From positions 158,392 through 222,391 of the IMG/VR virus record IMGVR_UViG_3300032053_000003: 64,000 bases of DNA, one strand, 5' to 3'. The notes beneath the pieces are model-generated. The model ran no database searches. It saw nothing but the letters and a program-made list of their open reading frames with translations, and was not told where the DNA came from. The DNA is from a virus. A program made the translations under genes and the position numbers. Positions 1-40,798 of the stretch are shown one piece after another. The stretch's first letter is position 1. Each line of letters starts with the position of its first letter.

Positions 1-605
1 GGCTGTATTCTGTTCTTGTGAACAAATATAGCTATTCGTGGAACAATACCTATAATCCAGCAGGTAAGTTAAATGGCACTGATTACAGACAGTATCTTCA
101 GCTTGGTAACCTGCAGGTTAAAAATTTGGTTAGAACTATTATTGCACCAGGGGATACGAATGATCAGAAAGCTGATAAGATTCTGAAGTGGCTAACAGAG
201 AATATTACTTATACTTCAGATGAAGAACAATATCATTTTAGTGAGTATTGGGCCAAACCCACTGAGATTTTGAAATCGAAGGCAGGGGATTGTGAGGACC
301 AGGCTTTTTTGATACATTCTATGCTCTTGGCTGCTGGAGTACCTGCTGATAGGATTCGTACTTATGGTGGTCTTGTAAAGGCTGGAGCTAATGCTCCATT
401 GGGTGGACATGCCTGGACTGTTTATAAACGAGAGTCAGATAACCAATGGGTTGACCTTGACTACTGTTATTACCCTGACAGCTCCTCTATAACATCCAGG
501 GAGACCTTTAAAGCCCAGGATGAGTATGTTGATGCCTACTGGTGGATGAATGCTTATGGCACGTATGATGAGTATGGTAAATGGGGCATAAACATATATG
601 CATAG
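1..605 (+). CDS. Transglutaminase-like (TGc) cysteine-protease domain protein. Probably 5'-partial, because the frame is open to the window start; the ORF track starts it at GTG 18.
   Basis: Catalytic context KAGDCEDQAFLIHSMLLAAGVPADRIRTYGG ... GGHAWTVY ... D, typical of a TGc Cys-His-Asp core. Confidence 0.6.
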   Translation, partial: LYSVLVNKYSYSWNNTYNPAGKLNGTDYRQYLQLGNLQVKNLVRTIIAPGDTNDQKADKILKWLTENITYTSDEEQYHFSEYWAKPTEILKSKAGDCEDQAFLIHSMLLAAGVPADRIRTYGGLVKAGANAPLGGHAWTVYKRESDNQWVDLDYCYYPDSSSITSRETFKAQDEYVDAYWWMNAYGTYDEYGKWGINIYA

Positions 606-883
606 GAGAGATGATGAAGATAGATAATATAGAGATACAAGAAGGGAAGTTTGTTATTAACCTTACTGGAGATGTATTGTCCTATGAAGATGTTGTTACT
701 GTCATAGTACCCCAATCTGAATTATTTGATAAGATAAAGGAATCATTTATTAAGAGTCCTGGTATTGCAGTTGTAGACTGTACTACGTGTGTGGCTTTTG
801 GGAGGGCTACTGAACCTGGTTTTTTCTGTGCTAAATGTCCAGAGAAGCAGGAGTACTGCAAGTTATATGAAGCAAGGAGGTAA
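581..883 (+). CDS. Hypothetical small zinc-ribbon protein
   Basis: ORF with CTTC...CAKC pairs. Overlaps the previous gene by 25 nt. Confidence 0.4.
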   Translation: MGHKHICIGEMMKIDNIEIQEGKFVINLTGDVLSYEDVVTVIVPQSELFDKIKESFIKSPGIAVVDCTTCVAFGRATEPGFFCAKCPEKQEYCKLYEARR

Positions 884-886
884 ACT

Positions 887-1141
887 ATGGGTGCTGTATG
901 GAACTCTTTGATGAGTGACAAAGTAGGGACCTTATCAGCTACTCGTTTTTCCTTTGTTATGTGTACCTTTATATCAAATTTAACAGTCTTTTTGGTCTGG
1001 GCAGGTTTGAGTGTATCACAATCCAAGATGGTCTTGATTCCTGAGTCTGTTATCTTTTTGTATTGTCTTGCCAATGGGATAACATTTACAGGAAAGATGG
1101 TTCAAAAGCAGATTGAGAGTAAGGGATGTGTAACAAAATGA
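887..1141 (+). CDS. Small hydrophobic (membrane) protein
   Basis: 84-aa ORF with two hydrophobic stretches and a tight operon position. Confidence 0.4.
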   Translation: MGAVWNSLMSDKVGTLSATRFSFVMCTFISNLTVFLVWAGLSVSQSKMVLIPESVIFLYCLANGITFTGKMVQKQIESKGCVTK

Positions 1142-1782
1142 TCGAAGATAATGTACATTTTAATAAGAGAGGTTTTGTTATAGGTGGAGGAGAGTCCATC
1201 AAAAAAATGATAGCTAATGGTTTGGATACTGGAAAATTGATAACTAATGAGATCACGGTAGGCACAAATAAATCATATGAACTGGGTAGGAGTACCTATC
1301 ATGTAGCCATGGACATTGATTACTTCAGAGATGATAAGGAGAACCTGCTAAAACAGAATCTTTATGTGTCAGATAACATTAGAAACGGCTATCCTGATGA
1401 TAAGGCTATTAAAACGATTAAGAAACTCAGTAGGACTCCTAAGATCATTTCAAAGTCTTTTAATGATGGTTTATATTATGGGAGATCCACAGGCTACCTT
1501 GCTATGAATCTAGCTCATGTATTGGGGTGTAATCCAATATACCTTCTTGGAATCGATCTTGTGGGTTTGCACTTTCATAAAGGTTATGGTGCTGAAAAGG
1601 ACCAGAGACTGCCTAGAGAGCATAAGGTAATCGAACAAGAGTTACGAGCAGGGATAAAGTACCTTCAAGATCTTGGAACAGTAGTTATCTCTCTATCCAA
1701 TATTTCTAAGCTCAATGATATTATACCTTACGATCCTTCTATTCTGAAACTTTACGGATACATTGAAGAGGTGGTAGAATAG
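1126..1782 (+). CDS. MptE-like / DUF115-type domain protein, a putative glycan or nucleotide-sugar transferase
   Basis: GGGESIKKM...YYGRSTGYLAMNLAHVLGCNPIYLLGIDL resembles the DUF115/MptE family. Family recall only. Confidence 0.35.
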   Translation: MCNKMIEDNVHFNKRGFVIGGGESIKKMIANGLDTGKLITNEITVGTNKSYELGRSTYHVAMDIDYFRDDKENLLKQNLYVSDNIRNGYPDDKAIKTIKKLSRTPKIISKSFNDGLYYGRSTGYLAMNLAHVLGCNPIYLLGIDLVGLHFHKGYGAEKDQRLPREHKVIEQELRAGIKYLQDLGTVVISLSNISKLNDIIPYDPSILKLYGYIEEVVE

Positions 1783-3308
1783 TGATCATAGTATCCTTTT
1801 ACACCTCTCTATATGAGGAACAGCATCATGTTCTTAAGGCTTCTTTGGAAAAGTTTGGTCTGAAGTATGACATCCAAAGAGTTGCATCAAGAGGCAGCTG
1901 GAAGTCCAACAATCTATACAGAGGTCAGTTCCTCATTAACATGATGAACAAGCACAATGATAATGTTGTATGGTTAGATGCAGATGCTGAAGTTTTGAAG
2001 TACCCTACTTTGCTATATGCTATAAAAGATAATACTGATCTTGCCTGGTATACAAGAGATGGAAGAGGATATCTGCTTGGTACTTCCTACTGGAAGAACT
2101 CTCCTCTGGTTAAACATCTCTTAATGGACTGGGTAGCCACTTGTGATATAAACTCAGCTTCCTTGTCTCAAAGGGACTTTATGAGGCTGTTTCAACAAAA
2201 GTATCAGGGTAAGCTTATTGTGCAGCCTTTACCTGAAGAGTACTGTCATATCTTTGATAATAAATTAGCTACTAGAGAGCCAGTCATAGTACATCATCAG
2301 TTAAGTAGACAGTTCAGGAGTGCTTCTCAGCAGGTTGAAAATGAGGTACCAGTCGATCCTGTTCCTGTTCAACCATCAGTAGTATCTGTACCTCCAGATC
2401 CTCCTCCTTATAAGAGTAACCCTAGTGGGAAGAGAACAGTATTCTTACCTCTCAACCAAAACAACTGGGCCTTTGATGTCAGGTGTACTGCTCTTGAAAG
2501 GCATCTATCCCCCTATTACAATATTCAGAAGGTGAGTGGATTTGATATTGTCAGGAAGGGTCTTGGCTTTCATGCTGATCTTATTTATTGGCCTACCTAT
2601 GAATCTCTGGACAGAATGGGGTGCCATTGCCACCGTGTATGTGCTACCATAGGTGGTCTCGTTGTTCGTTCCTTGGAGGAGTCTCTTAGTCATTTTGGTA
2701 AGGCAGCAGCTATAGCAGTCCCTAATAAGACCTGGTTTGATCAATATGCAAGGAGTAATCTACCTGATACCAAGTTCTTTCTTATCCCAAATGGTGTGAA
2801 CATTAATGTGTTTGTACCTAAGCCTAAGCCTAATGGTTTCGTTATAGGTTGGGCAGGGAATGATCTTCCTGATAGGGCTAAGGTTAAGAGAATAGAAGAG
2901 CTTAGAAAGATCTGTACCAAACAAGGTATCATTCTGATGGAGCAGGGTAGATCAGCACTGGTTGTCCATGATAGGATGCCAGAATTCTACCAAAAGCTTG
3001 ATCTTTATGTGAACCTCAGTACCACTGAAGGATCAAACAATTGTATTCTTGAGGCTGCTGCTTGTGGTGTTCCTATCTTAGGTACCAGAGTAGGTAATAT
3101 TCCTGAGCTTGAGAGTGCAGGTGCTTTTACAGTTGAGCATGATCTGAGTGATCTTGAAGAAAAATTATGCTATATCCGTGATCTGAACAATAGAAGTGAG
3201 ATAGGTGAGAGTATGAGGAATGAGATTGTTCTTCATTACAGTAGTGAGCTAATGGCTATGAGGTACAAAGAGATGTTTGAATATAGTCTCTCTAAAGATA
3301 TCAAATAA
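1782..3308 (+). CDS. Two-domain glycosyltransferase: N-terminal DXD-type nucleotide-sugar transferase domain plus C-terminal GT-B (GT4-like) domain
   Basis: N-terminal VVWLDADAEVLKYP (DXD). C-terminal EAAACGVPILGTRVGNIPEL is the classic GT1/GT4 signature. Confidence 0.65.
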   Translation: MIIVSFYTSLYEEQHHVLKASLEKFGLKYDIQRVASRGSWKSNNLYRGQFLINMMNKHNDNVVWLDADAEVLKYPTLLYAIKDNTDLAWYTRDGRGYLLGTSYWKNSPLVKHLLMDWVATCDINSASLSQRDFMRLFQQKYQGKLIVQPLPEEYCHIFDNKLATREPVIVHHQLSRQFRSASQQVENEVPVDPVPVQPSVVSVPPDPPPYKSNPSGKRTVFLPLNQNNWAFDVRCTALERHLSPYYNIQKVSGFDIVRKGLGFHADLIYWPTYESLDRMGCHCHRVCATIGGLVVRSLEESLSHFGKAAAIAVPNKTWFDQYARSNLPDTKFFLIPNGVNINVFVPKPKPNGFVIGWAGNDLPDRAKVKRIEELRKICTKQGIILMEQGRSALVVHDRMPEFYQKLDLYVNLSTTEGSNNCILEAAACGVPILGTRVGNIPELESAGAFTVEHDLSDLEEKLCYIRDLNNRSEIGESMRNEIVLHYSSELMAMRYKEMFEYSLSKDIK

Positions 3309-3321
3309 TGGAGGTATAACT

Positions 3322-3876
3322 ATGCTTAGCCTTAAATGGAAGGATACCAAGATTAGTGGTAAATTGAACAAAGCAGGTCTTGCTGAAGACCACAAGTACA
3401 GGGACAGAGAAGGTCTTATCAACTTCCAGCAGTCCATCATTGACAGGTATTTGAGTGATTACAAAGACTGTGATCCTATCAAGGTCCTTGATGTATCCAC
3501 AGGTGCAGGTGTCTTTGTGGAGTTGATGAATGACCTTGGACATGCTGCTAAAGGTACTGAGAAGCCTGGTACGCCTTACCAGGTATTCCTCAAGAGCCAG
3601 AAGACCGATGTGATCTACCATGACTCCTCTGAGGTTCCCTTTCCGTTCAAGAAGGGTGAGTTTGATCTGGTGACCTGTATCAGCTCCTTCAATTTTTATC
3701 CTGAAGACTTCTACAAGAAAATTCTCAAAGAACTTTTCAGGATCTCCAAGAAGACTGTTTTTCTGCTTCTTACCAAGAGTGAGTCCTTTGACAAGAACAA
3801 GGAGCTGTTTGATGCCCCTGTAGATGGTTGGACTCTTTCAGTTCAGGGTCCCTACTATCGGTGGGACAAGGTATAA
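3322..3876 (+). CDS. Class I SAM-dependent methyltransferase
   Basis: Motif I VLDVSTGAGVFVEL. Likely start is ATG 3322 behind GGAGG; the ORF track's 3277 start overlaps the GT gene. Confidence 0.55.
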   Translation: MLSLKWKDTKISGKLNKAGLAEDHKYRDREGLINFQQSIIDRYLSDYKDCDPIKVLDVSTGAGVFVELMNDLGHAAKGTEKPGTPYQVFLKSQKTDVIYHDSSEVPFPFKKGEFDLVTCISSFNFYPEDFYKKILKELFRISKKTVFLLLTKSESFDKNKELFDAPVDGWTLSVQGPYYRWDKV

Positions 3877-4717: not shown

Positions 4718-5854
4718 TTAATTAACTGTGAAGGTTCTACTATCACCTGTAGTATTCCAATTTTCAACGTCCATAATAATATTTGAAGTAGCAGGAGTGA
4801 ATGTGTATCCTGTTGCTTTTACAGTAATCGTATAACGTCCACTAGTTAATCCTGAGAAACTGTAGTTCCCACCAGCTATTGTGGTAGTAGTCAGAATAGC
4901 ATTATTGTTATCCAAACAAGTCAAAGTGACAGTTGCACCTACCAGTCCATTTCTTCCAGATCCTAGAGATGCCTCAGGGAAAAGTACAGCTCCGAGTAAA
5001 ATAGAAGGTAAAGGTGTAACAACAGGAGCTGGAGTTGCAACAGGAGTTGGATTAGGAGAGCCATGGAACTGTGTACCTGAGTCATCTCTACCTGTGATAT
5101 TTATCAGTACTATTGTAGGACGAGAGTAATTATCAACAGCCGAAAACCTGTACCCAGTCCTTGAAGCTGTTAAATAATAAGAACCATCTTCTACTGTGAA
5201 TTCAAAATGTCCATCAGTATCAGTGAGGGTTGTTCCTGTTACAGGAATACCTAAACTTGTTAATTTGTCACTTCCATCAGCACCTTTGGAGGCAATACCA
5301 GTCGTACCTGTCAATGTAATCGTAACCCCTGATATAGATCCTTGAACAATGTTAAGAGCTACATGGCTTCCTACCAATCCTGAAATCTTGTACTTACTTG
5401 TTGGTGTTGGGGTAGGTGATGGAGTGGAGGTGTCCCTGGCTGTAAAAGCAGAGGTAGCCACACTCTCATTACTGTCAACAGCAACAGAGGTACTGATAGG
5501 TGTGAAAGAGTAGTCATCCGATGATGGTGTTACTGTGTAAGTACCAGCTGTCAGACCTGAGAAAGAATACTCACCATTTTCATTTGTGGTCGTCTCAGCT
5601 TGACTTCCACTGAAGGCAACAGCTACTGCTGCACTGTGGGCAGAGGGCTTGGTTAAGGTAATGGTTACATCAGACAGGGGTTCCCCATTCTGTGTGAGGA
5701 CACCTGACACTGAGTATGTGATAGCAACAGGAGCAGGTGTGCTGGAACCGGAGTCACTGCTTCCATTGCTTCCACCTCCACCACAACCTGATAACAACAA
5801 ACTGATCAATAATACTACTGCTACAGTTAAATAATTTCTAAACTTTGTACTCAT
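4718..5854 (-). CDS. Lipoprotein with three carboxypeptidase-regulatory-like / Cna-B-like beta-sandwich repeats
   Basis: Signal peptide plus lipobox LLLSGC, then a Gly/Ser linker. Three repeats of the pattern GxTVTLT...NGxYSFSGLTxGxYTVT. AAGGAG SD, and the 35-bp motif lies upstream. Confidence 0.65.
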   Translation of the reverse strand: MSTKFRNYLTVAVVLLISLLLSGCGGGGSNGSSDSGSSTPAPVAITYSVSGVLTQNGEPLSDVTITLTKPSAHSAAVAVAFSGSQAETTTNENGEYSFSGLTAGTYTVTPSSDDYSFTPISTSVAVDSNESVATSAFTARDTSTPSPTPTPTSKYKISGLVGSHVALNIVQGSISGVTITLTGTTGIASKGADGSDKLTSLGIPVTGTTLTDTDGHFEFTVEDGSYYLTASRTGYRFSAVDNYSRPTIVLINITGRDDSGTQFHGSPNPTPVATPAPVVTPLPSILLGAVLFPEASLGSGRNGLVGATVTLTCLDNNNAILTTTTIAGGNYSFSGLTSGRYTITVKATGYTFTPATSNIIMDVENWNTTGDSRTFTVN

Positions 5855-7936: not shown

Positions 7937-8650
7937 TCAATCACGGTCCTTCTCCATACAATCAACCCAGGTACGTTGAGAGTTCACACAGAATAGGACA
8001 TGACCTATTTCAGATATCCTCATGGCTGCTCCATCTACCTTTTCAAACAGAGGACTGCCACCAAGGAGAGAGTGTTCATAAGAGAGGATATAACCGATAT
8101 CCCTACAATCTTTGAACCACAGTGGGTCCCTACGAGGTTCCTTGTCTCTCTGGATATTGTGGGCCGATCTTATGATGTCCCTGTACTTGGCTGATATCGG
8201 GAGGTAGGACAACTCTGAAGATCCCTTCATCCTTGTGCCACGAACATGTACAGCCTTTTTGAAAGCATCGTTTTCCAGGACAATGATATAATCCAGGTTC
8301 TGATCACAATACCCCATGAGTTTGGTGCCTTCCTTCTTGCAGGGGATGTACCATACATAGCTGTCCCCATTACCGTGACCACCCCTGTTCCTCTTGGTGT
8401 GACCGTGGGTCTTGAGGTAGTTATGGACATACTCTGCATCTTCCATCATTTTAGGCATGGCATGAACAAAGAAGTTTTGTATAACTTTACTGAGGAAATC
8501 AGTAAAGCTTTGCTGACTATACTCGTATGCTGCTATGAGACTGGCTATTGGATTCTGGGCATAGGATCTGTTATCTTTTGGAAAGTATTTTGTCATTATT
8601 GCAAGGAGTTCTTGAGTACAAAAGGTTGCTGCTGCTTCTATTTCTTTCAT
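7937..8650 (-). CDS. Hypothetical protein
   Basis: 237-aa ORF, translationally coupled to the Thg1-like gene through a 4-nt overlap. Confidence 0.5.
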   Translation of the reverse strand: MKEIEAAATFCTQELLAIMTKYFPKDNRSYAQNPIASLIAAYEYSQQSFTDFLSKVIQNFFVHAMPKMMEDAEYVHNYLKTHGHTKRNRGGHGNGDSYVWYIPCKKEGTKLMGYCDQNLDYIIVLENDAFKKAVHVRGTRMKGSSELSYLPISAKYRDIIRSAHNIQRDKEPRRDPLWFKDCRDIGYILSYEHSLLGGSPLFEKVDGAAMRISEIGHVLFCVNSQRTWVDCMEKDRD

Positions 8651-9534
8651 GACTTCTCCTTGAGTATTGTTTTAAATTGAAGTCTTAAGTAATTTTGGTC
8701 AACTACTAAAATTTTAGGCTCCTCTCCAAACAGGATGACCTCCACACGGTTCTGGACCTGTGTGATAGGAGGCATATCCAGGATCATCACATCTGTACGT
8801 TCTATCATCAGATCAGGGTTCTTCCTGGCATCATGCTTCTCAGGAAGCTTGTCCAGCTCATCAGTGGTAAATTTCCTGGAGGTCCTCCTCTTCTGAATGT
8901 AGGTGCCCCTCTTGAAAAATGCAGGGTAGTCATTCCAGTTTACACCCTTCTCATGAAGCATCTCCTGCATCTCACTGTTGCTCTTCTTATAGAGGACCTT
9001 GTGAGAGAAGTAATTTTGAGCAGCCATCTCTACACTGTTCCTGGTAGCATCTTTCTCTCTCCAGACAAACATGTTGGCAGCTTCCATCAAGGTAGGTACC
9101 TGCCATACCCTGCAGTCAAAAGCAGCTATTAGGGATGCTTTAGAGGGGATATACTCGGCTTTGTGGGTATTGAAGAAACCAGTAGCATAGGATGCAAGGA
9201 CACTGTTCATCTTCTGGACCTTACCATCAAAGAAGATCTTGCTTTTGTAGTCATTACTGTACCATACCAGGCTGATCTCGTCTGACTGACAGTACCCCAT
9301 GTTGGCCTGGGTTTCCTTCACTAGGTATTTGGCAGTCTGTCTCATGAGATCACAGAAGCCTCCGTCATAGGGACGTTTAAGACCCCTGCAGAAGGTATGG
9401 AAGGTCTTACCGTCTATACGACAACAAATAGGTAATAGAGGCAGAAATCTCTGACCTGCCTCAGCTTGTTCATATTCCTTCATACGTGTGTCTAAGGTAT
9501 CCATTTTTACTTTCATACGTAGTGACTCCCTCAA
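8647..9534 (-). CDS. Thg1-like protein (tRNA-His guanylyltransferase family 3'-5' nucleotidyltransferase)
   Basis: RIDGKTFHTF...KPYD, CQSDEISLV, FDCRVWQVP and VWREKDATRNS...AAQNYF align with Thg1 motifs (RIDGKKFH, GESDEYSF, FDSRCVAYP, SWRYVDTHINNLYNTTFW). Probable true start is MKVKMD behind GAGGGAG. Confidence 0.7.
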   Translation of the reverse strand: MRESLRMKVKMDTLDTRMKEYEQAEAGQRFLPLLPICCRIDGKTFHTFCRGLKRPYDGGFCDLMRQTAKYLVKETQANMGYCQSDEISLVWYSNDYKSKIFFDGKVQKMNSVLASYATGFFNTHKAEYIPSKASLIAAFDCRVWQVPTLMEAANMFVWREKDATRNSVEMAAQNYFSHKVLYKKSNSEMQEMLHEKGVNWNDYPAFFKRGTYIQKRRTSRKFTTDELDKLPEKHDARKNPDLMIERTDVMILDMPPITQVQNRVEVILFGEEPKILVVDQNYLRLQFKTILKEKS

Positions 9535-9587
9535 TTTTCAAGATTAACTAAAGACATGAAATTTAAAAATAATGAAGAAAAGTACAT

Positions 9588-10013
9588 TTAGTATGTAAGA
9601 TCATCCATTTCAGAAGCAGCAACCTGGTCAGTGAAGGAGATGCTCTTATCATCTGCTGTCAGCTCAACAGGCTGTCCACAGGAACAAGTTATCTCAGGCA
9701 TCCAATCCACTCCGTAGAAGCTCTTTTTGTACCGACTTCCACTCTCTTCGATAAGATTGACATCTCCCTCATCAATGGAAAACTCGTGATCACCTTCTAC
9801 GTGACCTTTGATCTCAAACTCTTTCTCAAAGGTAAACGAGGCTTCCTTGATTTCATCACCACAGCATTCCGAATTTCTTACTATCCTGATCTCTCCTGTG
9901 ATGTTGAGGAAGACTTTGCCATTGTCCTCCCTGCTTTCTATCTCCATCTGCTGGACTTCTGGGTCTTGTAACTCCAGACCACAAAATTTGTTGCAACTAG
10001 GACACTTAGCCAT
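9588..10013 (-). CDS. Hypothetical acidic protein with terminal CxxC pairs
   Basis: MAKCPSCNKFC ... CSCGQP. AGGAG SD. Confidence 0.5.
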   Translation of the reverse strand: MAKCPSCNKFCGLELQDPEVQQMEIESREDNGKVFLNITGEIRIVRNSECCGDEIKEASFTFEKEFEIKGHVEGDHEFSIDEGDVNLIEESGSRYKKSFYGVDWMPEITCSCGQPVELTADDKSISFTDQVAASEMDDLTY

Positions 10014-10069
10014 ATCGTACTCCTTTACCGATTTTGTTAATAGATACTATGGTAATCTACTAAGATCAA

Positions 10070-10096
10070 GAGAAAAAGGGGCTTGCAAGCCCCTTG
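10070..10096 (-). terminator. Rho-independent terminator downstream of the RCC1/PASTA gene
   Basis: aggggcttgcaagcccct perfect GC-rich hairpin, followed on the minus strand by TTTTTCTCTT. Confidence 0.6.
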
Positions 10097-10103
10097 ATCC
10101 GTA

Positions 10104-11828
10104 TTATTTCATGTAGGTTACAACAACATCTTTTGAACCACGATTGATGACCTGCACATCAGCATTGACAACAGAGGTATAACCATTCTTGCCTTTGTAG
10201 ATCCAGACCTTACCAGCTTTGTTCAAATAGACAATTACCTTTCCATTGGAATCAGTAGTTGCCTGATAGAGGAAGGAACCGTCCTTATCTTTCAAGGTAA
10301 CAAGGACACCACTCAGAGGATGGTTTTCCTGATTCAGTACTATAATGGTTGCTACAACCTTGCTGGTATCAACAACAGGTGGAGCCACAACCACTGGGGG
10401 TTCAGGAATGACCACTGGTGGAGTCACAACCACTGGAGGTGTCACTATAGGAGTTACCACAACAGGTTCAGGAACCACTACCACTGTCACAGGGGGGACT
10501 ACAGGAGCCACTACTACAACAGGCTCAGGGGTCACTGGAGCAGGAGGAGTCACTATAGGCTCAGGGGTTACTACAGGGGTCACAACTGGCTCAGGAATGA
10601 CAGGAGCTACTGGAGCAACTGGCTCAGGCTCAGGTGTCACGATAGGCTCAAAAACAGGCTCAGGCTCTGGAACTGAAACTGGGGGAGTCTCTACAACTGG
10701 AGGAGTCACAACAGGCTCAGCACCAAGAGAGGTAACGAGAGTAACCTGAGTACCCTTGCTTACAGAAGTACCAGCAGCAGGGTCTTGGCTTATAACTGTA
10801 TTGACAGGAGCATCATTGTAATAGGAATCCCATGCACCCACTGTCAACTTTGAATTCACGATAGTCTGTTCAGCCACAGTATCAGAGAGGCTGACAACAT
10901 TCGGTACTGCAACCTTGTACTCATAGATACCGAGGTTCCAAAGTTCTACACCTTTGTAAGGAACAAAAGTGGTATTGCCACAAGCAACCACAGTACCATC
11001 AGCTTTCAATCCAACAGTGGTATCCTCCCCTGCTGAAACCTGGATAATGTTTGTCCAGCCACTCACGTTGCAGCATCCTTTAAAATTATAACCTACAGCA
11101 ACCACAGTCCCATCAGCTTTCAAGCCAACTGTATGACCAGCACCAGCTGAAACCTGGATAATGTCTGTCCAACTACTTACATTGTTCTGACCTTGTTCAT
11201 AGTCACCAGCAGCCACTACGGTACCATCGGCTTTCAAACCAATTATATGACAATAATATGCAGAGATCTGAGTAATGTCTGTCCAACTAGTTGCATCATG
11301 ACTATTATTACTATTGCCACCAGCAGCCACAACAGTCCCATCATTTTTCAGACCGAAAATGTCAGCTTCACCACTTGATATCTGTTTGATCCCTGTCCAA
11401 GTAAGTGCAGCATTCTGACCATAACCATAGTCTCCTACGATTACCAAGGTCCCATCATCTTTAAGTCCAATGGTATGATCACGCAGTGAGACTTCTATCT
11501 GGATAATGTGTGTCCAACCACTTACATTGCACTGACCTGCATTATTGTATCCAGTAGCTACCACTGTCCCATTGGCTTTCAGACCAGCTGTCACAAGGTA
11601 GTCAGCTGAAACCTGAATGATATCAGTCCAGGCACTTACATTAAGGTTACCTAAAGCAGAAGACCCAACTGCTACTACGGTACCATCCGTTTTGAGTCCT
11701 ACTGTAGAGATTTGTCCAGCGTCTATCTGGGGAGGGACTGCTGCAAAAGCAATGGGTGTCACCAAAAAAACCATTGCAAAAGCCAGGGCTAGAAACTTTA
11801 ATACGTTCACGAATGATAATTTCTTCAT
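10104..11828 (-). CDS. Secreted RCC1-like beta-propeller repeat protein with a PASTA-like domain, a Pro/Thr/Val-rich linker and a C-terminal beta-sandwich domain
   Basis: N-terminal signal peptide (MKKLSF...AFAAVPP). About 7 repeats of GLKxDGTVVAxG...W(T)xIIQVSAG. A PASTA-like segment (VVSLSDTVAEQ...VISQDPAAGTSVSKGTQVTLVTSLG). Roughly 130-aa PT-rich low-complexity linker. Confidence 0.65.
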   Translation of the reverse strand: MKKLSFVNVLKFLALAFAMVFLVTPIAFAAVPPQIDAGQISTVGLKTDGTVVAVGSSALGNLNVSAWTDIIQVSADYLVTAGLKANGTVVATGYNNAGQCNVSGWTHIIQIEVSLRDHTIGLKDDGTLVIVGDYGYGQNAALTWTGIKQISSGEADIFGLKNDGTVVAAGGNSNNSHDATSWTDITQISAYYCHIIGLKADGTVVAAGDYEQGQNNVSSWTDIIQVSAGAGHTVGLKADGTVVAVGYNFKGCCNVSGWTNIIQVSAGEDTTVGLKADGTVVACGNTTFVPYKGVELWNLGIYEYKVAVPNVVSLSDTVAEQTIVNSKLTVGAWDSYYNDAPVNTVISQDPAAGTSVSKGTQVTLVTSLGAEPVVTPPVVETPPVSVPEPEPVFEPIVTPEPEPVAPVAPVIPEPVVTPVVTPEPIVTPPAPVTPEPVVVVAPVVPPVTVVVVPEPVVVTPIVTPPVVVTPPVVIPEPPVVVAPPVVDTSKVVATIIVLNQENHPLSGVLVTLKDKDGSFLYQATTDSNGKVIVYLNKAGKVWIYKGKNGYTSVVNADVQVINRGSKDVVVTYMK

Positions 11829-11952
11829 TTGTTACATCCTACCTTTCATTTTTATTTTAAGGTTGTGATCCCAGCTACTGACTCACACCTTATTTGTCGG
11901 TATAAATCTATATTACCTTAGTGTTATTAGCCTGATCGATTAGATTAGCCAT

Positions 11953-12645
11953 TTATTTTACCAGAATATCATTAACACTGCACCACTTCCAGTATCCCCC
12001 AGCTCCTATCCAGTGAATTGCCCCATTTTTTACATCAGGATTGTTTGCATATCCTCTATCAAAAGAGTGGATGGTTACGGTCAGTATCCTGGTGGTTATT
12101 ATCCCCTCTCTAGGATATTTGGGGTGAGTAGAGTATACAACAGAGCCTCTCTTGATCTGCACACGAATACTCTTCTTGAGCATCTTGACAAAAGTTGAGG
12201 TGAAGGGTCCGACATTTTCTATCTCGGTGATACCTTCCCTCTCCATCCATTGGGCACAAACCAGGGCATTCTGCATCTCGGTATACTTATCGTTCCTGTC
12301 CCTGTTATAGGTTCCTGGAGGATACTCCTCACGAAGTCTGAGATATTCCTTCTCAGCATCAGCAGCCATGTCCAAGAGCATCTGAACTGTATACACTTTG
12401 GTCACCAATGTCTCTATCTCAATCGTAGGGTCATGCTGGTAAACACCTATCCTGTACTCCTTTTCAAGCAGCTCTACGGCTACTTCAAGATTGTTAAGGA
12501 CAAAATCCTGATCACTTTCCTGGTACCCATCTGGACTATCATCATCCAAAGGTCTACGAGGATTGATCCTATAGAAAAGCATCTTCTTGTTCTTCATCTT
12601 CTTGTTCTTCATCACATATCCTTCTGCTGTAAGAGCTTCTTTCAT
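11953..12645 (-). CDS. Hypothetical protein
   Basis: 230-aa ORF. Confidence 0.5.
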   Translation of the reverse strand: MKEALTAEGYVMKNKKMKNKKMLFYRINPRRPLDDDSPDGYQESDQDFVLNNLEVAVELLEKEYRIGVYQHDPTIEIETLVTKVYTVQMLLDMAADAEKEYLRLREEYPPGTYNRDRNDKYTEMQNALVCAQWMEREGITEIENVGPFTSTFVKMLKKSIRVQIKRGSVVYSTHPKYPREGIITTRILTVTIHSFDRGYANNPDVKNGAIHWIGAGGYWKWCSVNDILVK

Positions 12646-12655
12646 AACCTACTCC

Positions 12656-13588
12656 TTATAAGGCAAGGCTGAGATCAGCCTTGTGCTCTTCGTGGATGAT
12701 GCCCTGCATATAATCAGCAGCTTTCTGAGCCTGGGCAGCAGCAAGGACTACCATCTTGGTGTCGGCTTTGATGGTCTTTTTCCAAGAGGCCACATATGCA
12801 GCATTGTTTTCAATAGTATTATTTTCAATACCAGTAATGGCACATAAGAAGGCAGCAGTCATCTCAGCAACCAGTTCTTCTTTGCCATAATCGTTGCTAC
12901 CGAAATAGTTCAGGAAGTTTGAACGATGCAGCCTGGACTCATGACCAGTGCTGTGAGCAGCTTCGTGGAACAGTACACAGTAATACTTTTCCATGCTGGT
13001 GAACTGGTCCTGGTCGGGCATGGTGATTGTATCAGGGTCAGGGGAATAGTAAGCCCTGTTAGAGCCATGGTTGATCTTAGGGCATGTGGCATAAAGAGAC
13101 ATGATGTGCTCACAAGCATTTATTGGAGAGAGATCCTTCACAGGGGACTCATCAACCTTGGCAGCAGGAGCCTCAATGCCATCACACTGTTCGATATTGA
13201 ATACTGAGAAGTACCTGAGCATAGGGACTGTCTTGAACTTGGCATTGCCATCTTTGTTCAGAGCAGGGGTACCATCAGCATTAACGGCTGCTTTGCTAAG
13301 GAACTTCCAGAAGATAACCAATGTGGATTTCTCACCCTTACGGACCTGTCCACCTTTTTCCTGGCACTGCTTGTAGGAGAGCCAGTAAGGAGAGGAGTAA
13401 CCCTTCTCTTCAGCAGTGGCAAGGAGCAACCAGGGGTTAATGCCACGATACGGTTTCTTGGTGATAAAATTATACTGAGAAAAGCCACCGTTTCCAACCT
13501 TGTGGGTCCAGGGACGGTTCCACGGAACAACACCCTTATCAAGTAGTTCGATGATTCTGTTAGTAACGATTTCGTAAACATTAGCCAT
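12656..13588 (-). CDS. ardC: ArdC-like antirestriction protein (N-terminal ssDNA-binding ArdC-N domain plus zincin-like metallopeptidase domain)
   Basis: LDKGVVPWNRPW (ArdC-N) and VLFHEAAHSTGH (HExxH). True start is ATG 13588 behind AAGGAG. The ORF track's GTG 13639 lies inside the promoter motif. Confidence 0.7.
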   Translation of the reverse strand: MANVYEIVTNRIIELLDKGVVPWNRPWTHKVGNGGFSQYNFITKKPYRGINPWLLLATAEEKGYSSPYWLSYKQCQEKGGQVRKGEKSTLVIFWKFLSKAAVNADGTPALNKDGNAKFKTVPMLRYFSVFNIEQCDGIEAPAAKVDESPVKDLSPINACEHIMSLYATCPKINHGSNRAYYSPDPDTITMPDQDQFTSMEKYYCVLFHEAAHSTGHESRLHRSNFLNYFGSNDYGKEELVAEMTAAFLCAITGIENNTIENNAAYVASWKKTIKADTKMVVLAAAQAQKAADYMQGIIHEEHKADLSLAL

Positions 13589-13621
13589 AGGGGTTAGCTC
13601 CTTATTGTTTTGTCTTTCTAT

Positions 13622-13656
13622 CCCTATAACGGTTTTCACCCCAGCAGTTTGTACAA
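13622..13656 (-). promoter_or_regulatory. Conserved 35-bp promoter-like motif, copy 3 (consensus)
   Basis: ccctataacggttttcaccccagcagtttgtacaa followed by ctattttgtttatttt. Confidence 0.55.
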
Positions 13657-13766
13657 CTATTTTGTTTATTTTAAATTATTTCTGTTCTATAAGGTACATG
13701 TGGTGTGGGGTTGGTTGGTCAATATTGAAGTGAAACCCAATTTCCTCTTACAAACCCAACTAACCC

Positions 13767-14012
13767 CTACTTCACAAACTTTACCGTGTATTCGATGTCA
13801 CCTGTTTTAAAGTTATACCTGTCATACTTACAATGCTTGTAAAAACCATGAAACTTACGAGCTGTCCTGTAGGCATTATCACCCACAACCTTCACAGTAC
13901 AACCATGCTTCTTGGCTACCCTTACAAAGGCATCCATGACAGCATCACCAGAAGGGACAGGACTGTTCCCGATATGGAACACATTGTTGAAAATGATATT
14001 AGGAGTAGGCAT
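13767..14012 (-). CDS. Hypothetical protein
   Basis: 81-aa ORF. Confidence 0.45.
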   Translation of the reverse strand: MPTPNIIFNNVFHIGNSPVPSGDAVMDAFVRVAKKHGCTVKVVGDNAYRTARKFHGFYKHCKYDRYNFKTGDIEYTVKFVK

Positions 14013-16674: not shown

Positions 16675-17265
16675 TTAGTTATGAACAAATAAGGTTTTTT
16701 CAACCTTTCTGCAAGTAGGTTTAGGTACAACCTCAAAGACTTCTTTGATGTATTCCCAGTCTGCGTTAAAGATTCTGGAGTTCCAACCAACTTTCTTAAC
16801 AATATCTGTATTCACTATAATTGCTCCACAGTCTATCTCACCCAGTTGTATAGAAGTGTTCATGTACTTTCTATATTGCTGCTGAGGGTGAGAGTGAATC
16901 ATGTCACAAAAAATAACATCTTCTTTTCCAGAGGTCATCTCCTGGATAAAGGAGGGGATATAGTAGTTATCTCCATTAGTGATCAGGGTATATTTAGAGT
17001 AAGGTAATTTAGGAATAGCCATAGCTCTTAAAGAGTGCCCCCAGTCATTAAATCTACTTTCAGAGGACAGACATTCAATCCTGTAATCCAGTACAGAAAA
17101 ATACTTGAGATCACTATCATCCCATGGTCCATCATGGATAAGTAAGAGTCTCCAATTTTCATTTGTTTGAGATAAAATACTTTCAACAAAACATTTCAAC
17201 AAATGACCTTGTTTGTAGGTGACTGCAATGATAGAGAGATCAATAATAACAGAGGGATCGATCAT
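16675..17265 (-). CDS. Family-2 glycosyltransferase (GT-A fold)
   Basis: LSIIAVTYKQGHLLKCFVESILSQTNENWRLLLIHDGPWDD matches the GT2 N-terminal signature (SIIIPTYN...SLLxQT...EIIVVDDGS.D). Confidence 0.6.
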   Translation of the reverse strand: MIDPSVIIDLSIIAVTYKQGHLLKCFVESILSQTNENWRLLLIHDGPWDDSDLKYFSVLDYRIECLSSESRFNDWGHSLRAMAIPKLPYSKYTLITNGDNYYIPSFIQEMTSGKEDVIFCDMIHSHPQQQYRKYMNTSIQLGEIDCGAIIVNTDIVKKVGWNSRIFNADWEYIKEVFEVVPKPTCRKVEKTLFVHN

Positions 17266-37738: not shown

Positions 37739-37996
37739 TTAAGCATCCTTAATCAAGTGACCAAAGACTCTTTCAAGAACATCAGGTAACCCCCATGACT
37801 CTACCTTTAGAGCAGCTTCCACTTCAGTAAGGGATTCAAAGGAGTTGGCACCCTCTTGGTAGGTGAACCAGTTATTATTGGCTGTTCTGCAGAGGACAAC
37901 GTGGTCATATCCCTGACCAAAACTTGTAACCTCAGTTGCCATATCAGTGTCATACCTTACGAGCTTCTGAATAGTCTTCATTTCACCCCCCATCAA
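37739..37996 (-). CDS. Hypothetical protein
   Basis: 85-aa ORF. Confidence 0.4.
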   Translation of the reverse strand: MMGGEMKTIQKLVRYDTDMATEVTSFGQGYDHVVLCRTANNNWFTYQEGANSFESLTEVEAALKVESWGLPDVLERVFGHLIKDA

Positions 37997-39531
37997 ATTT
38001 GAATTTCCACGTTCCAGTTATATCGATCCCTTATCACCTTGTCCCTTGGCTGTTTGTCCTCAGGTATCTCTTCTTCACTGAGGATCTTGTGGTCCCACTT
38101 GTAAGCCTTCTCAGCATCATTGAACAACATCCTAAAGTCCTTCCTTAACCCTTCCTTACATTTCAGAACTATGCCAGTGTCAGTGTACACAACATCGAAG
38201 TCCAGACATCCACCCCAGCTTGTTCCCAGAGTGAAGTCCACAACTATAGGACATTCAATCCAAGGATACAGTCTAAGATTTTCTGTCTCACAGATGTGCT
38301 TAACCATTTTAATTAAGAGAGGCAGCTCACCAGGATAGATATCAAACAAAATACTGTCATGGACACTGCCTACTATGATAGATTTCAGACCCTTCCTCTT
38401 CATAGCCTTATAGAGTCTTCCTATAGAGTCTGATACAAGATCAGAGGCAGGACTTTGAATTTTATAGTTGACTGCCCTTCTGTGATTGGCTTCTTTATCT
38501 TCTTCACCTTTGAAGTTTATCATGTTGATAGGGATGATTCTGCCAAACACAGTTTCTACCGTGTGACTAGCATCTACCTCATTGTAGCACTCCTGGAAGT
38601 ACTCACTCAGACTTGTGCACCCTGAAAACAGACCATCCTTGATCTTCTTAGCTGCTTTTGTTGTGATATTGAGCTGCTCACCAAGGCTCTTATCGGAGAG
38701 GCCATAGATCAATCCGAAATTAACCGTTTTAGCCTCTTTCCTCTGTTTTTGTGTAACCTTATCAAGCTTTACCCCAAAGCAAACAGCAGCCGTAGCAGCA
38801 TGAATATCCACACCATTTTTAAAGGCTGTCAGCCACTTCTCTTCATGGGATAGAGAAGCTATTATTCTCAACTCCACCTGGGAAAAGTCAAAGCACCCAA
38901 ATAGACCTCCTACTTTTGCCCATCGGGATATAAAGAGTCTTTTAATATCTGAAACTTTGGGGAGGGTGTGAAATCCTGAAGAATGTCTGCCAGTTATAGT
39001 TCCATTTATTTGATAATTTGGATGATAGATGTTACCATCAAGATTATCACTGGCATTATCAAGATATGAGGATATTAGTTTCCTTAGTCCAGTATAAGCT
39101 GAGAGTGCAATAAGGAATTCCTTGGCATCAGCACTTGTATCCTTGTGTCTGATTAAGGCTTCGATAACATCCTTGTCAGTAGAGGGTGCAGATTTGCCCT
39201 CTTTAACTGATGTCATTTTGAAAAAGTCATCAAACAATATGCTCACTCTTTGCTGTGTGCTTCCAGGATTAAAGACTTTCTTTTCTAGCTCTTCCATGGA
39301 TAGTGGCTTCTTCTTTTTTGCATTATCTATGATGGCACTCTTCATACGAGGACGTATCCAATCTTCTATGAGACTAGCCATGGTGCCCCACTCACCTTTT
39401 GCCATCTCCTCATAAGCATTTTTTATGTAGTCAAAATTGTCTAAGTCAAACCAGATACCCTTAGTCTCAGCCTCGATAAACACAGGCAGTATGTTGTGAA
39501 GTATATCGATAACAACTTTACTCTTGCTCAT
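37993..39531 (-). CDS. Family-A DNA polymerase, polymerase (palm/fingers) subunit
   Basis: Motif A DFSQVELRIIA, motif B RKEAKTVNFGLIYG, motif C VHDSILFD. Confidence 0.85.
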   Translation of the reverse strand: MSKSKVVIDILHNILPVFIEAETKGIWFDLDNFDYIKNAYEEMAKGEWGTMASLIEDWIRPRMKSAIIDNAKKKKPLSMEELEKKVFNPGSTQQRVSILFDDFFKMTSVKEGKSAPSTDKDVIEALIRHKDTSADAKEFLIALSAYTGLRKLISSYLDNASDNLDGNIYHPNYQINGTITGRHSSGFHTLPKVSDIKRLFISRWAKVGGLFGCFDFSQVELRIIASLSHEEKWLTAFKNGVDIHAATAAVCFGVKLDKVTQKQRKEAKTVNFGLIYGLSDKSLGEQLNITTKAAKKIKDGLFSGCTSLSEYFQECYNEVDASHTVETVFGRIIPINMINFKGEEDKEANHRRAVNYKIQSPASDLVSDSIGRLYKAMKRKGLKSIIVGSVHDSILFDIYPGELPLLIKMVKHICETENLRLYPWIECPIVVDFTLGTSWGGCLDFDVVYTDTGIVLKCKEGLRKDFRMLFNDAEKAYKWDHKILSEEEIPEDKQPRDKVIRDRYNWNVEIQI

Positions 39532-40798
39532 TTGTTATCCTCTCATCAAGAGCAGTAAATAAGGCATCATTATAAAAAGTATCCAGAGCAGCATACTCAC
39601 CAAGAATAGAAGTGGGAATGTTGGCATAAGTACGATCCTCTATCTTACGAAACATCTTTATGTAGGTACTTACTGGAAGCTCCCAATTTGGAACACCAAA
39701 CCACTTCGTACAGAGTGTTTTTAGATCAAGATAACCAAAGGTCTGTCTTCCTATCAGTATGTGGGCAAGCAGCAGAGTATCATAGTAAACCCTGATCTTA
39801 TCTAGCTTTGCGATACCCATTGCTATAGCAAAATCTATGTCGAATTTAAGATTGTGGCCCACAATAGGTACAGTCTCTATCATCTCTCCTATAGCATGAT
39901 TAATCCTTACAATATTTTTGGCAGAGAGATCGATATTGATAGGATAGAACTTATTCATATATGGGTAATCCTCATGGTGCATGATGTTAGATATATGAAT
40001 AGGAACTGCTAAGGACTTTTTATTTACCAAGTTATTGTAAAAGGAGTACATGATGATCTTGTGTTTCCATGGAAGGAATCCACTAGTCTCACAGTCATAT
40101 AAAACATACTGAATAGCCTTGTCCTTGTAAGCTTCCACAATAAGCTTGGACTCTTTGATAGCCAAGGAGGGTTCAGCTATCACCCACTTCCTATCTTCCA
40201 CAGGCTCCTCTTTATCATGGTTAAGAGCCTCTCTGACTACGTTACGAAACTCCTTATCTGTTGTTGTGCCTATCTTGCCCCTGATAATATAAGAAGGGTG
40301 GTAGTTGGGGAAGAGCTTCCATACTCTGCCCTCTATGGTTACAAACTGTATATTACCTATCTCTTTTTCAATCCCTTTGTGCTTACCGATGAGGGATGTG
40401 AGAGGGCTGTTACCAAGGGACATGATTGCTGTCTCTTTAGGATTAAAGAGAGACAGCTCTTTATACAAGAAAGGTCGGCACCATTCTATTTCTTGGTTAG
40501 ACGGTTTTCTGGGACCTCGTTCATAATCAAAAGGATCTAGGTAAGGACAACACTTCACTGTGTTGGTTATGTATACAAGACCCTCCTCTTCCCCAAGAAC
40601 TTCTGATAAGAGCTGTCCCGATCTCCCAATGAAGACCTCACCTTCTAAGTCTTCAATTTTGCCAGGAGCCTCACCGATGATAATCAGCTTAGGATGATCA
40701 ATATTACCCCTAGCTCTTATCCTGGGTTTATTACAAAGCCTATGTAGGCCACATGCACCGCAATTATTTTCCATATTGCCCTTACCCTTTTGAAACAA
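39518..40798 (-). CDS. Family-A DNA polymerase N-terminal subunit: family-4 UDG-like domain plus 3'-5' exonuclease
   Basis: UDG-4 motifs IIGEAPG and GRSGQLL with N-terminal Cys residues. Exo I LYDCETSGF, Exo II HNLKFD, Exo III YAALD. Confidence 0.8.
   Translation of the reverse strand: MFQKGKGNMENNCGACGLHRLCNKPRIRARGNIDHPKLIIIGEAPGKIEDLEGEVFIGRSGQLLSEVLGEEEGLVYITNTVKCCPYLDPFDYERGPRKPSNQEIEWCRPFLYKELSLFNPKETAIMSLGNSPLTSLIGKHKGIEKEIGNIQFVTIEGRVWKLFPNYHPSYIIRGKIGTTTDKEFRNVVREALNHDKEEPVEDRKWVIAEPSLAIKESKLIVEAYKDKAIQYVLYDCETSGFLPWKHKIIMYSFYNNLVNKKSLAVPIHISNIMHHEDYPYMNKFYPINIDLSAKNIVRINHAIGEMIETVPIVGHNLKFDIDFAIAMGIAKLDKIRVYYDTLLLAHILIGRQTFGYLDLKTLCTKWFGVPNWELPVSTYIKMFRKIEDRTYANIPTSILGEYAALDTFYNDALFTALDERITNEQE

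Follow-up and report, generated by a model that had tools for sequence, protein, structure and literature searches.

A jumbo-phage gene for a predicted exported protein that combines a BLIP-II-type propeller, a PASTA domain, and a CnaB-like beta-sandwich

Gene structure and domain architecture

We analyzed a 64,000-nucleotide stretch of viral DNA (IMG/VR record IMGVR_UViG_3300032053_000003, positions 158,392–222,391; hereafter, the window) with respect to one gene, open reading frame (ORF) 10104..11828, which lies between genes for an ArdC-type protein and a Thg1-like protein (Table 1). Its product is made up of a predicted signal peptide, a seven-bladed beta-propeller, a single PASTA domain, a Pro/Val-rich spacer, and a C-terminal beta-sandwich. 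This is a phage gene for a non-catalytic protein in which three extracellular-type binding or stalk domains follow a Sec-type signal; no catalytic domain was found using Pfam, NCBIfam, PHROGs, or PADLOC. The three folded domains are all of types that monoderm bacteria use extracellularly. Both the domain architecture and the phage-borne use of these known domains (compact RCC1/BLIP-II propeller, PASTA, and CnaB-like) are new, and searches of a paper library with combinations of phage, PASTA, and RCC1 returned no report of a phage-encoded PASTA protein. An initial annotation made from the DNA letters had proposed a signal peptide, about seven RCC1-type blades, a PASTA-like module, a linker, a C-terminal beta-sandwich, and a terminator belonging to the gene itself. 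All of these parts were recovered here, with changes to the description of the linker (see below): the RCC1_2 and PASTA profiles both matched above their cutoffs, and a Sec-type signal was predicted rather than a cytoplasmic location.

The N-terminus is laid out as the n-, h-, and c-regions of a signal peptide (MKK and K11, an 18-residue hydrophobic core, and AFA/AV, with the slash marking the cleavage site), and the top Kyte-Doolittle window (residues 5–31) is the sole strongly hydrophobic segment of the protein. Although signal-peptide sequences are just 35–42% identical between most relatives, a site with small residues at −3/−1 is kept in six of six (AVA, FSA, FSA, AIA, VYA). By inspection, the sequence thus has the charged n-region, the h-region, and the small −3/−1 residues of a Sec type I signal peptide, from which we infer export and cleavage. 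Regular-expression scans of the protein and five relatives found neither a lipobox ([LVI][ASTVI][GAS]C) nor an LPXTG-like motif with a hydrophobic segment, and anchoring as a lipoprotein or by sortase was rejected.

Directly after the signal peptide, seven blades of 38 aa form the propeller. The Pfam RCC1_2 profile (PF13540) matched with an E-value of 1.7e-33 (114 bits; cutoff, 22 bits) over six scored stretches, and exactly seven GLKxDGT motifs recur with a 38-aa period (residues 44, 82, 121, 159, 197, 235, and 273), with an average identity of 46% between blades. The full-length AlphaFold model (16-sequence alignment) has a predicted local distance difference test (pLDDT) score >90 over residues 30–290 and contains 21 strands, that is, three in each of seven blades. 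In a Foldseek comparison to the PDB, the best match was BLIP-II (3qi0, 1jtd, and 3qhy; E 2.5e-20, template modeling [TM] score 0.76–0.80, root-mean-square deviation [rmsd] 2.7 Å, 26% identity), and the classical RCC1-type propellers UVR8, HERC1/2, RCC1, and RPGR ranked lower (E ~1e-13 to 1e-10, TM 0.45–0.61). Because BLIP-II is the top fold match and the classical types are weaker, we assign the modeled propeller to the compact, three-strand-per-blade BLIP-II subtype of the RCC1/BLIP-II lineage. The canonical RCC1 profile (PF00415) was not reached (E 0.7, 10.9 bits vs. a cutoff of 21.7), and BLIP-II was not retrieved by sequence using either phmmer or the family profile.

BLIP-II of Streptomyces exfoliatus is a secreted binder of the RCC1/BLIP-II propeller lineage (PMC9218822), and resembles the phage domain in being a non-enzymatic, seven-bladed propeller with short (~38–40 aa) three-strand blades. 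However, it is a stand-alone bacterial protein that lacks the PASTA domain, spacer, and CnaB-type domain, all three of which are present in the phage protein. The strand cores of the phage propeller are near-invariant, and variation peaks at loop positions (blade register 8–9 and 25–31) both between blades and between orthologues. When the propeller alone is considered, thousands of homologues share 45–55% identity with it, including Clostridiales Ser/Thr kinases and Flg_new, TIR, and TPR proteins; this level of identity reflects consensus-like repeats and is not a marker of a specific relationship.

The PASTA domain was identified by Pfam (PF03793; residues 306–367, E 1e-11, 45 bits vs. a gathering cutoff of 23.2) over profile positions 1–63 of 64, and by sequence matches to PDB entries 3py9, 3m9g, and 2kud, which include PASTA domains of Staphylococcus aureus Stk1 and Mycobacterium tuberculosis PknB. 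The NCBIfam model PknB_PASTA_kin (NF033483) matched locally only (model positions 362–441, 40 bits vs. a cutoff of 450), and Pfam detected no kinase domain, so that the architecture is not that of a PknB-type kinase. The PASTA and C-terminal half of the full-length model had low confidence (pLDDT 30–50), and residues 299–574 were modeled separately with an alignment enriched with 45 trimmed PASTA domains. In this second model, PASTA has a pLDDT of 91–98 and shows the alpha-plus-beta fold of the family, with one helix on a three-stranded sheet. Foldseek aligned it to PASTA3 of PknB (3ouv; rmsd 1.1 Å, TM 0.89) and to Stk1 (3m9g; rmsd 1.4 Å, 33% identity), with further fold matches to StkP, PonA2, S. 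aureus PBP1, and PBP2x.

The phage domain thus has the same fold and family (PF03793) as the extracytoplasmic PASTA domains of PknB, PrkC, Stk1, StkP, and class B penicillin-binding proteins (PBPs). These kinases and PBPs carry 2–4 tandem PASTA domains, whereas the phage protein has one, lacks a kinase domain, a transpeptidase domain, and a transmembrane anchor, and places its PASTA between a propeller and a CnaB-like domain. PASTA ectodomains recognize muropeptides, with binding that differs between domains and between species (PMC6448482), and the phage domain may likewise bind peptidoglycan. As a separate observation, PADLOC models of the PD-T4-6 defense system matched residues 304–380 (E 1.5e-10). 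This match is confined to the PASTA region, indicating that some PD-T4-6 models contain a PASTA-like segment; membership in that system was therefore rejected, and no PADLOC defense family matched the protein over the greater part of its length.

Between PASTA and the C-terminal domain lies a spacer of 117 aa (V42, P38, E11, T11; i.e., 36% Val, 32% Pro, 9% Glu, and 9% Thr). The initial annotation had described a Pro/Thr/Val linker of about 130 aa; its low complexity holds, but the segment is shorter and is Pro/Val-rich rather than Pro/Thr-rich. It lacks secondary structure (pLDDT ~50–64 in the model of residues 299–574 and <52 in the full-length model) and is predicted to be disordered or extended. 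All orthologues in our alignment (A1) lack the spacer, which is therefore not shared by the family but is a lineage-specific insertion, unique to this phage. Because it can be inserted at this position, PASTA and the C-terminal domain need not touch. When fully extended, it would reach up to ~35 nm (assuming ~0.3 nm per residue in a polyproline-II-like chain), enough to span a thick wall.

The last 82 residues form a putative prealbumin-like, CnaB-type beta-sandwich. Pfam CarboxypepD_reg (PF13620) matched residues 496–571 (E 1.6e-6) with 28.8 bits, under its gathering cutoff of 32.3, alongside weak matches to other prealbumin-fold families (bMG3; SdrD_B, 16.4 vs. 29.7 bits; SpaA, 15.7 vs. 23.1 bits; MG4). 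A profile match to the CnaB2 domain 8bdw (E 7e-4) agrees with Foldseek, in which the same structure (E 2.4e-4, TM 0.65) was found together with the BcpA pilin, SdrD B, and carboxypeptidase regulatory domains. Of the seven strands of a prealbumin-like sandwich, the first five are modeled with a pLDDT of 79–88, and the last 30 residues are below 50. By profile and fold, the domain matches the CnaB stalks of Gram-positive pilins and MSCRAMM adhesins (8bdw, BcpA 3kpt, SdrD B), from which it differs by scoring under the Pfam cutoff and by lacking a sortase motif. The isopeptide Lys of some CnaB domains, judged by eye in alignment A1, does not seem to be conserved in the phage protein and its orthologues.

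The gene carries its own signals for translation initiation and termination. Its ATG start directly follows AAGGTAGGA, and the core GGAGGATGTAAC of the initiation block is kept in three other phage lineages when the four upstream regions are aligned. Termination is predicted at AAGGGGCTTGCAAGCCCCTT plus a T-tract (10095..10076, minus strand), which begins 8 nt past the stop codon. The gene is co-oriented with a replication block (see below), yet its own terminator makes it look monocistronic. A sigma-70 promoter scan found none upstream of the gene, with a site count in the region at chance level, and an Rfam search of positions 9000–13000 returned no match. Beside these results, we observed that the 5′ untranslated block CATGAAACGGAGGATGTAAC, directly before the start codon, is almost invariant in the four phage lineages, in which the remaining intergenic region and the signal-peptide coding sequence are divergent. 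This block is a strong Shine-Dalgarno sequence and could have a regulatory function as well.

Two antisense ORFs lie opposite the spacer. The initial annotation had rightly called them spurious but had attributed them to nucleotide repeats. Within the linker, Tandem Repeats Finder detected no more than two short arrays (18 bp × 1.9 and 9 bp × 2.2), and the antisense frames are open because sense codons that read as a stop on the opposite strand (TTA/CTA/TCA) occur just once in the spacer, compared to 12 times in the remaining gene. The antisense ORFs are therefore an artefact of codon composition.

Table 1 Features of the gene and its surroundings. Positions refer to the window unless another sequence is named.
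Feature	Position	Strand	Basis
Complete gene, 574 codons and TAA stop (10104-10106)	10104..11828	-	ORF list; 574 aa
Predicted signal peptide, residues 1-29, MKKLSFVNVLKFLALAFAMVFLVTPIAFA/A	11742..11828	-	Hydrophobicity maximum, no lipobox, conserved AxA-type site
Seven-bladed beta-propeller (RCC1_2/BLIP-II type), residues 30-298, seven 38-aa blades	10935..11741	-	Pfam, blade register, AlphaFold, Foldseek
Single PASTA domain, residues 303-372	10713..10922	-	Pfam, NCBIfam, PDB sequence matches, model
Pro/Val-rich spacer, residues 376-492	10353..10703	-	Composition, alignment A1, low pLDDT
C-terminal prealbumin-like/CnaB-type beta-sandwich, residues 493-574	10107..10352	-	Profiles, Foldseek, model
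Shine-Dalgarno/translation-initiation block AAGGTAGGATGTAAC	11831..11845	-	Sequence and alignment of four upstream regions
5′ region compared across lineages	11826..11960; L010 9870-10003; L004 9870-10003; L015 4344-4477	- (window)	
Intrinsic terminator with an 8-bp stem (5 G-C pairs), a 4-nt loop, and a T-tract	10066..10095	-	Terminator scan, sequence
Two overlapping antisense ORFs (10320..10676 and 10345..10749)	10320..10749	+	Opposite the spacer; low-complexity G/T/H/R-rich translations
ArdC-type anti-restriction/zincin protein	12656..13639	-	Syntenic with gene in L009, L010
Thg1-like tRNA-His guanylyltransferase homologue	8647..9534	-	Pfam E 3.2e-29; syntenic with gene in L009, L010
Predicted 378-aa lipoprotein, MSTKFRNYLTVAVVLLISLLLSG/C, LLSG/C lipobox	4718..5854	-	CarboxypepD_reg/SdrD_B/SpaA-type beta-sandwiches, Pro/Thr-rich linkers
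DNA polymerase as two slightly overlapping ORFs	37993..39531 and 39518..40798	-	phrog_17 positions 478-829, 834-1299

A conserved scaffold with an exchangeable propeller head

The full architecture (signal peptide, propeller, PASTA, and beta-sandwich) was found in the proteins P0074, P0094, P0120, and P0122, which are 482–490 aa in length. A scan of JGI/ENA metagenomes added a few further members, with one contig labeled as activated-sludge metagenome; this single label points to wastewater sludge as the habitat. In an exhaustive HMMER search of 1.84 billion representatives at 50% identity, which was swamped by poly-PASTA proteins, only P0074 spanned the whole PASTA plus C-terminal profile, and the family makes up one 50%-identity cluster among these representatives. 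The same profile retrieved no relatives from IMG/VR. Among GenBank phages, nothing was matched by a megablast search with window positions 8000–14000, and tblastn with the protein sequence yielded only three matches, all confined to the propeller (25–49% identity). No bacterial copy was found among the GTDB species representatives, where three spurious linker/PASTA matches were returned by peptide patterns that were uninformative, making this a weak test.

Every member with readable flanking genes lies in a phage-like or jumbo-phage context. P0074 adjoins Thg1 and ArdC, as in the window, and P0122 is encoded on a contig of 246,837 bp (Ga0501914_00005), on which ligase-like, sigma factor, ArdC, methyltransferase, and glycosyltransferase genes are syntenic. 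The neighbors of P0120 are DUF5131, resolvase, Nmad3, and DUF2779 genes. The gene keeps its position in two or more jumbo-phage lineages whose DNA is only 65–80% identical.

A cluster look-up identified a further member with a different head. P0338 (584 aa, Logan ERR14064716) keeps the type of signal peptide, PASTA, the beta-sandwich, and the flanking genes, and lacks the Pro/Val-rich spacer, but begins with an SBBP propeller of ~390 aa (PF06739, E 8.4e-18) that is unrelated in sequence to the RCC1_2 propeller. Its gene (in L015) occupies the same locus as that of P0120 (in L004). When the two loci were compared using blastn, homology extended from ~380 bp upstream to approximately codon 18 (74% identity), vanished over the propeller, and returned at the start of PASTA to continue through the downstream genes (78% identity). 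These breakpoints mark a clean replacement of the RCC1-type propeller by an SBBP propeller at an orthologous locus, showing that the family consists of a conserved scaffold (signal peptide, PASTA, and CnaB-like domain) and an exchangeable propeller head.

The RCC1-type orthologues themselves are also mosaics of modules, with identities that rank differently for each part of the protein. Signal peptides are 89% identical between P0094 and P0120 and 39% identical between P0074 and P0094, whereas the propellers of P0074 and P0094 share 88% identity and those of P0094 and P0120 share 70%. For the C-terminal domain, P0074 is 90% identical to P0120 and 72% identical to P0094.

The C-termini of the relatives showed another difference. 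P0074, P0094, P0120, and P0338 all end with a Lys-rich tail (…TAKKKK) and P0122 ends with the Cys/Lys-rich KDCKKDCKKDNCKKNCKHDCKKSCKHSHN; the window protein lacks such a tail and has the Pro/Val-rich spacer instead. The tail might bind to the wall or membrane electrostatically.

Genomic setting in a jumbo phage

The identical protein is encoded on three metagenomic contigs, the longest of which (230,776 bp; ENA ERZ27247916, k141_351042) contains the window at ~82.5–146.5 kb. In addition to ArdC, Thg1, and DNA polymerase, the window encodes DnaB, an exonuclease, SbcCD, an NAD-dependent ligase, a methyltransferase, a RecA-like protein, SF2 helicases, and a small sigma factor of generic type. No structural genes were recognized in the window and no tRNA was found in it. 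The locus is a replication or early-type region of a ~231-kb jumbo phage, and the phage replication genes that surround ORF 10104..11828 on the long contig support the phage origin that had been given initially. The two ORFs of the DNA polymerase reflect a frameshift or else a polymerase that is split.

When all ORFs in the 64 kb were screened heuristically, only two real proteins carried export signals: the propeller-PASTA protein and a predicted lipoprotein encoded ~4 kb away. The N-terminus of this lipoprotein is kept in the 247-kb phage (L010 14057-15385), in which the C-terminal module is an NHL/SGL-type propeller, not beta-sandwiches. The predicted lipoprotein is thus another exported protein in which a module can be exchanged. 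Homology between its domains and the C-terminal domain of the propeller-PASTA protein was considered and rejected because the match covers 16 residues only. The idea that the gene forms a conserved pair with a Cys-rich ORF of 141 aa located downstream was likewise rejected: that ORF is 76% identical in the closest lineage (L009) only and is unrelated in L004.

Several other observations were made at this locus. In one contig that encodes the identical protein (L003 2621..3313, corresponding to window positions 11953..12645), the upstream 230-aa gene was called as two pieces of 41 aa and 142 aa, which points either to disruption of the gene or to a difference between assemblies. The replication block also encodes an 892-aa protein (30581..33259, minus strand) with a Major Vault Protein (MVP) shoulder domain (PF11978, E 4.4e-20) and a Vault_3 repeat (E 2e-8), for which PHROGs gave no match; viral MVP homologues have been described in gut phages in a 2023 preprint (10.1101/2023.11.10.566534). 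Finally, transglutaminase-like cysteine protease, GT1 glycosyltransferase, and methyltransferase-like genes are located at positions 1..3876 (plus strand) and 16675..17265 (minus strand), with those at the left end on the opposite strand, and are syntenic with genes of the 247-kb phage. One speculative idea is that these genes serve to glycosylate the exported proteins rich in Pro/Thr/Val.

Possible role at the host cell envelope

Taken as an exported, envelope-associated binder, the protein is probably described correctly. The complete reading, namely that it is a Sec-exported, non-catalytic, modular cell-envelope binder of a ~231-kb jumbo phage, is one that we favor somewhat, and the proposed division of labor between head and anchor has slightly better than even chances. 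Under this reading, the signal peptide would be cleaved and the mature protein would reside outside the cytoplasmic membrane of the infected cell. PASTA and the CnaB-like beta-sandwich would be the conserved scaffold that directs the protein to peptidoglycan or nascent wall or tethers it there, with the Lys-rich tail of the orthologues possibly adding to this attachment. The seven-bladed BLIP-II-type propeller would then serve as the specificity head, binding a protein or a glycan located at the wall surface or within the wall, and the spacer between PASTA and the C-terminal domain would let the two ends act at different depths of the wall. By occupying or neutralizing a surface component, the protein would alter the surface of the infected cell; candidate targets are the receptor of the phage itself, the wall-penetrating apparatus of a competitor phage, and a penicillin-binding-fold wall enzyme. 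Interference with wall sensing, superinfection exclusion by receptor blocking, and anchoring to peptidoglycan, as put forward in the initial annotation, are hypotheses. The exchange of the propeller, with the signal peptide, PASTA, and CnaB-like domain kept, suggests an anchor joined to a specificity head and, for this reason, a role in binding or blocking; pure sequestration of muropeptides is a poorer fit.

Phages are known to export non-structural proteins that bind to the receptor or entry apparatus. Llp of T5, Sp (spackle) and Imm of T4, and Ltp of Streptococcus phage TP-J34 are encoded by non-structural genes and exported by Sec, and Llp and Ltp are lipoproteins. We propose Llp and Sp in particular as functional analogues, an analogy of function only: none of the four is related to the phage protein in sequence or fold (no PHROG match), and the propeller-PASTA protein, in contrast to the lipoproteins Llp and Ltp, lacks a lipobox. 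Receptor masking or superinfection exclusion as the specific function is possible but doubtful.

Several points weigh against the envelope-binder reading. The N-terminus could be an uncleaved signal anchor, and, given that not every PASTA domain binds peptidoglycan, a single PASTA may be a mere spacer. A thick Gram-positive wall in the host is suggested by the domain types only. The likeness to BLIP-II is at the fold level only (26% identity, with no match in sequence searches), and RCC1-like propellers occur in virion proteins of some phages, i.e., the ‘tail tubular protein Gp11’ of an uncultured phage and a protein of Pseudomonas phage Noxifer. PHROGs returned an RCC1-type family and a weak tail match only, with no known exclusion protein. 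With ~7–8 distinct members in the family, its evolutionary statistics are descriptive.

One alternative overlaps the envelope binder as a specific class of target: a BLIP-II-like inhibitor, in which the propeller would block a penicillin-binding-fold enzyme (PBP, DD-carboxypeptidase, or beta-lactamase-like) or an incoming tail hydrolase. PASTA would concentrate the inhibitor at the site of wall synthesis, and the phage would reprogram or protect the wall during a long jumbo-phage cycle. Sp of T4, an exported inhibitor of the tail lysozyme, is a precedent. The PDB fold match to BLIP-II, itself a secreted binder, beats those to classical RCC1 proteins by seven orders of magnitude in E-value, the unusual three-strand, ~38-aa blades are common to both propellers, and class B PBPs carry PASTA domains, those of PBP2x and S. 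aureus PBP1 being among the fold matches. However, the fold does not imply the function of BLIP-II, because thousands of RCC1_2 propellers have varied partners (kinases, TIR, TPR, Flg_new), and a sequence-level relation to BLIP-II is absent. The exchange for an SBBP head is also hard to square with one conserved enzyme target unless targets differ between phages, and we regard the inhibitor as improbable. A decoy for host wall sensing is a still weaker candidate. It would sequester muropeptides or other ligands by means of PASTA and a propeller that resembles kinase ectodomains, blunting signaling by PASTA kinases or RCC1-type kinases (stress response, dormancy, or germination) during infection. 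A single PASTA (3–4 in tandem in kinases), the SBBP head swap, and a C-terminus that resembles a wall anchor are all unlike a soluble ligand sponge, although PASTA kinases do sense muropeptides and control the exit from dormancy (PMC6448482) and the phage PASTA is 24–36% identical to those of Stk1 and PknB (rmsd 1.1–1.4 Å). Blades 45–53% identical to those of the phage are found in many Clostridiales Ser/Thr kinases with RCC1_2 ectodomains, such as P0055 (989 aa, ‘protein kinase [Clostridiales bacterium]’), the one kinase inspected, in which ~14 blades follow a transmembrane segment and hence lie outside the cell. Such kinases are receptors anchored in the membrane, with the kinase domain in the cytoplasm, PASTA is absent from all of those listed, and the identity is that of consensus-like repeats of the whole RCC1_2 family, in which non-kinase proteins score higher.

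Placing the protein on the virion, as a tail-fiber, decoration, or adhesion protein whose propeller and PASTA bind the host wall at adsorption, would turn its hydrophobic N-terminus into an assembly or membrane-association element in place of a cleaved signal peptide. The canonical n-h-c signal peptide with an AxA-type site in all relatives is at odds with this, given that virions assemble in the cytoplasm. The BFVD fold matches do include the tail tubular protein Gp11 and the Noxifer virion structural protein, PHROGs gave a weak tail-protein match (phrog_13857, E 7.8e-4), receptor-binding proteins, too, typically exchange head modules, and CnaB-like, Ig-like, and peptidoglycan-binding modules do occur on virions. 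Still, the gene lies between ArdC and Thg1 in a replication or early-type block with no structural genes in 64 kb, it looks monocistronic with its own terminator, and its product has no N-terminal tail-attachment domain; we consider a virion role quite unlikely. Similarly low odds apply to a bacterial passenger gene, i.e., a host-type surface adhesin or biofilm protein without an infection-specific role beyond a possible effect on host fitness. That all domains are bacterial surface-protein types, that the propeller has thousands of bacterial homologues, and that the gene has its own translation-initiation region and terminator, in the manner of a moron, would be expected of such a passenger. 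The full architecture is nevertheless known from phage-like contexts only, as a single cluster among the 1.84 billion representatives, the GTDB species representatives hold no copy (although the scan patterns were poor), and its position is conserved between jumbo-phage lineages that have diverged in DNA sequence.

Returning to the envelope binder, a broader view of it would be that these proteins are a new class of jumbo-phage ‘surface takeover’ proteins, in which a conserved cassette (Sec signal peptide with PASTA and CnaB-like domains as wall anchor) carries interchangeable BLIP-II-type and SBBP-type heads in a monoderm host. Each head would inhibit or block a different target with high affinity (receptor, competitor tail enzyme, or host PBP), recombination would exchange the heads in an arms race of phage versus phage, and the toolkit would also include the neighboring lipoprotein, whose C-terminal module is variable. 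This wider proposal is speculative, and we think it unlikely to hold. Exported phage proteins that remodel the surface are known from a few Gram-negative model phages (Llp, Cor, Sp, Imm) and from a few prophages of lactic acid bacteria (Ltp, Sie2009); to our knowledge, almost nothing is known about such proteins in jumbo phages or in environmental monoderm hosts. If the head-and-anchor model is wrong, the gene encodes merely a secreted repeat protein, as is common in large phage genomes. If it is true, the protein would be a natural modular scaffold to display binders on peptidoglycan, and the two head types at one locus would make a tractable case of phage-phage or phage-wall conflict. New inhibitors that bind wall enzymes with high affinity, in the manner of BLIP-II, may then also be obtained from the heads.

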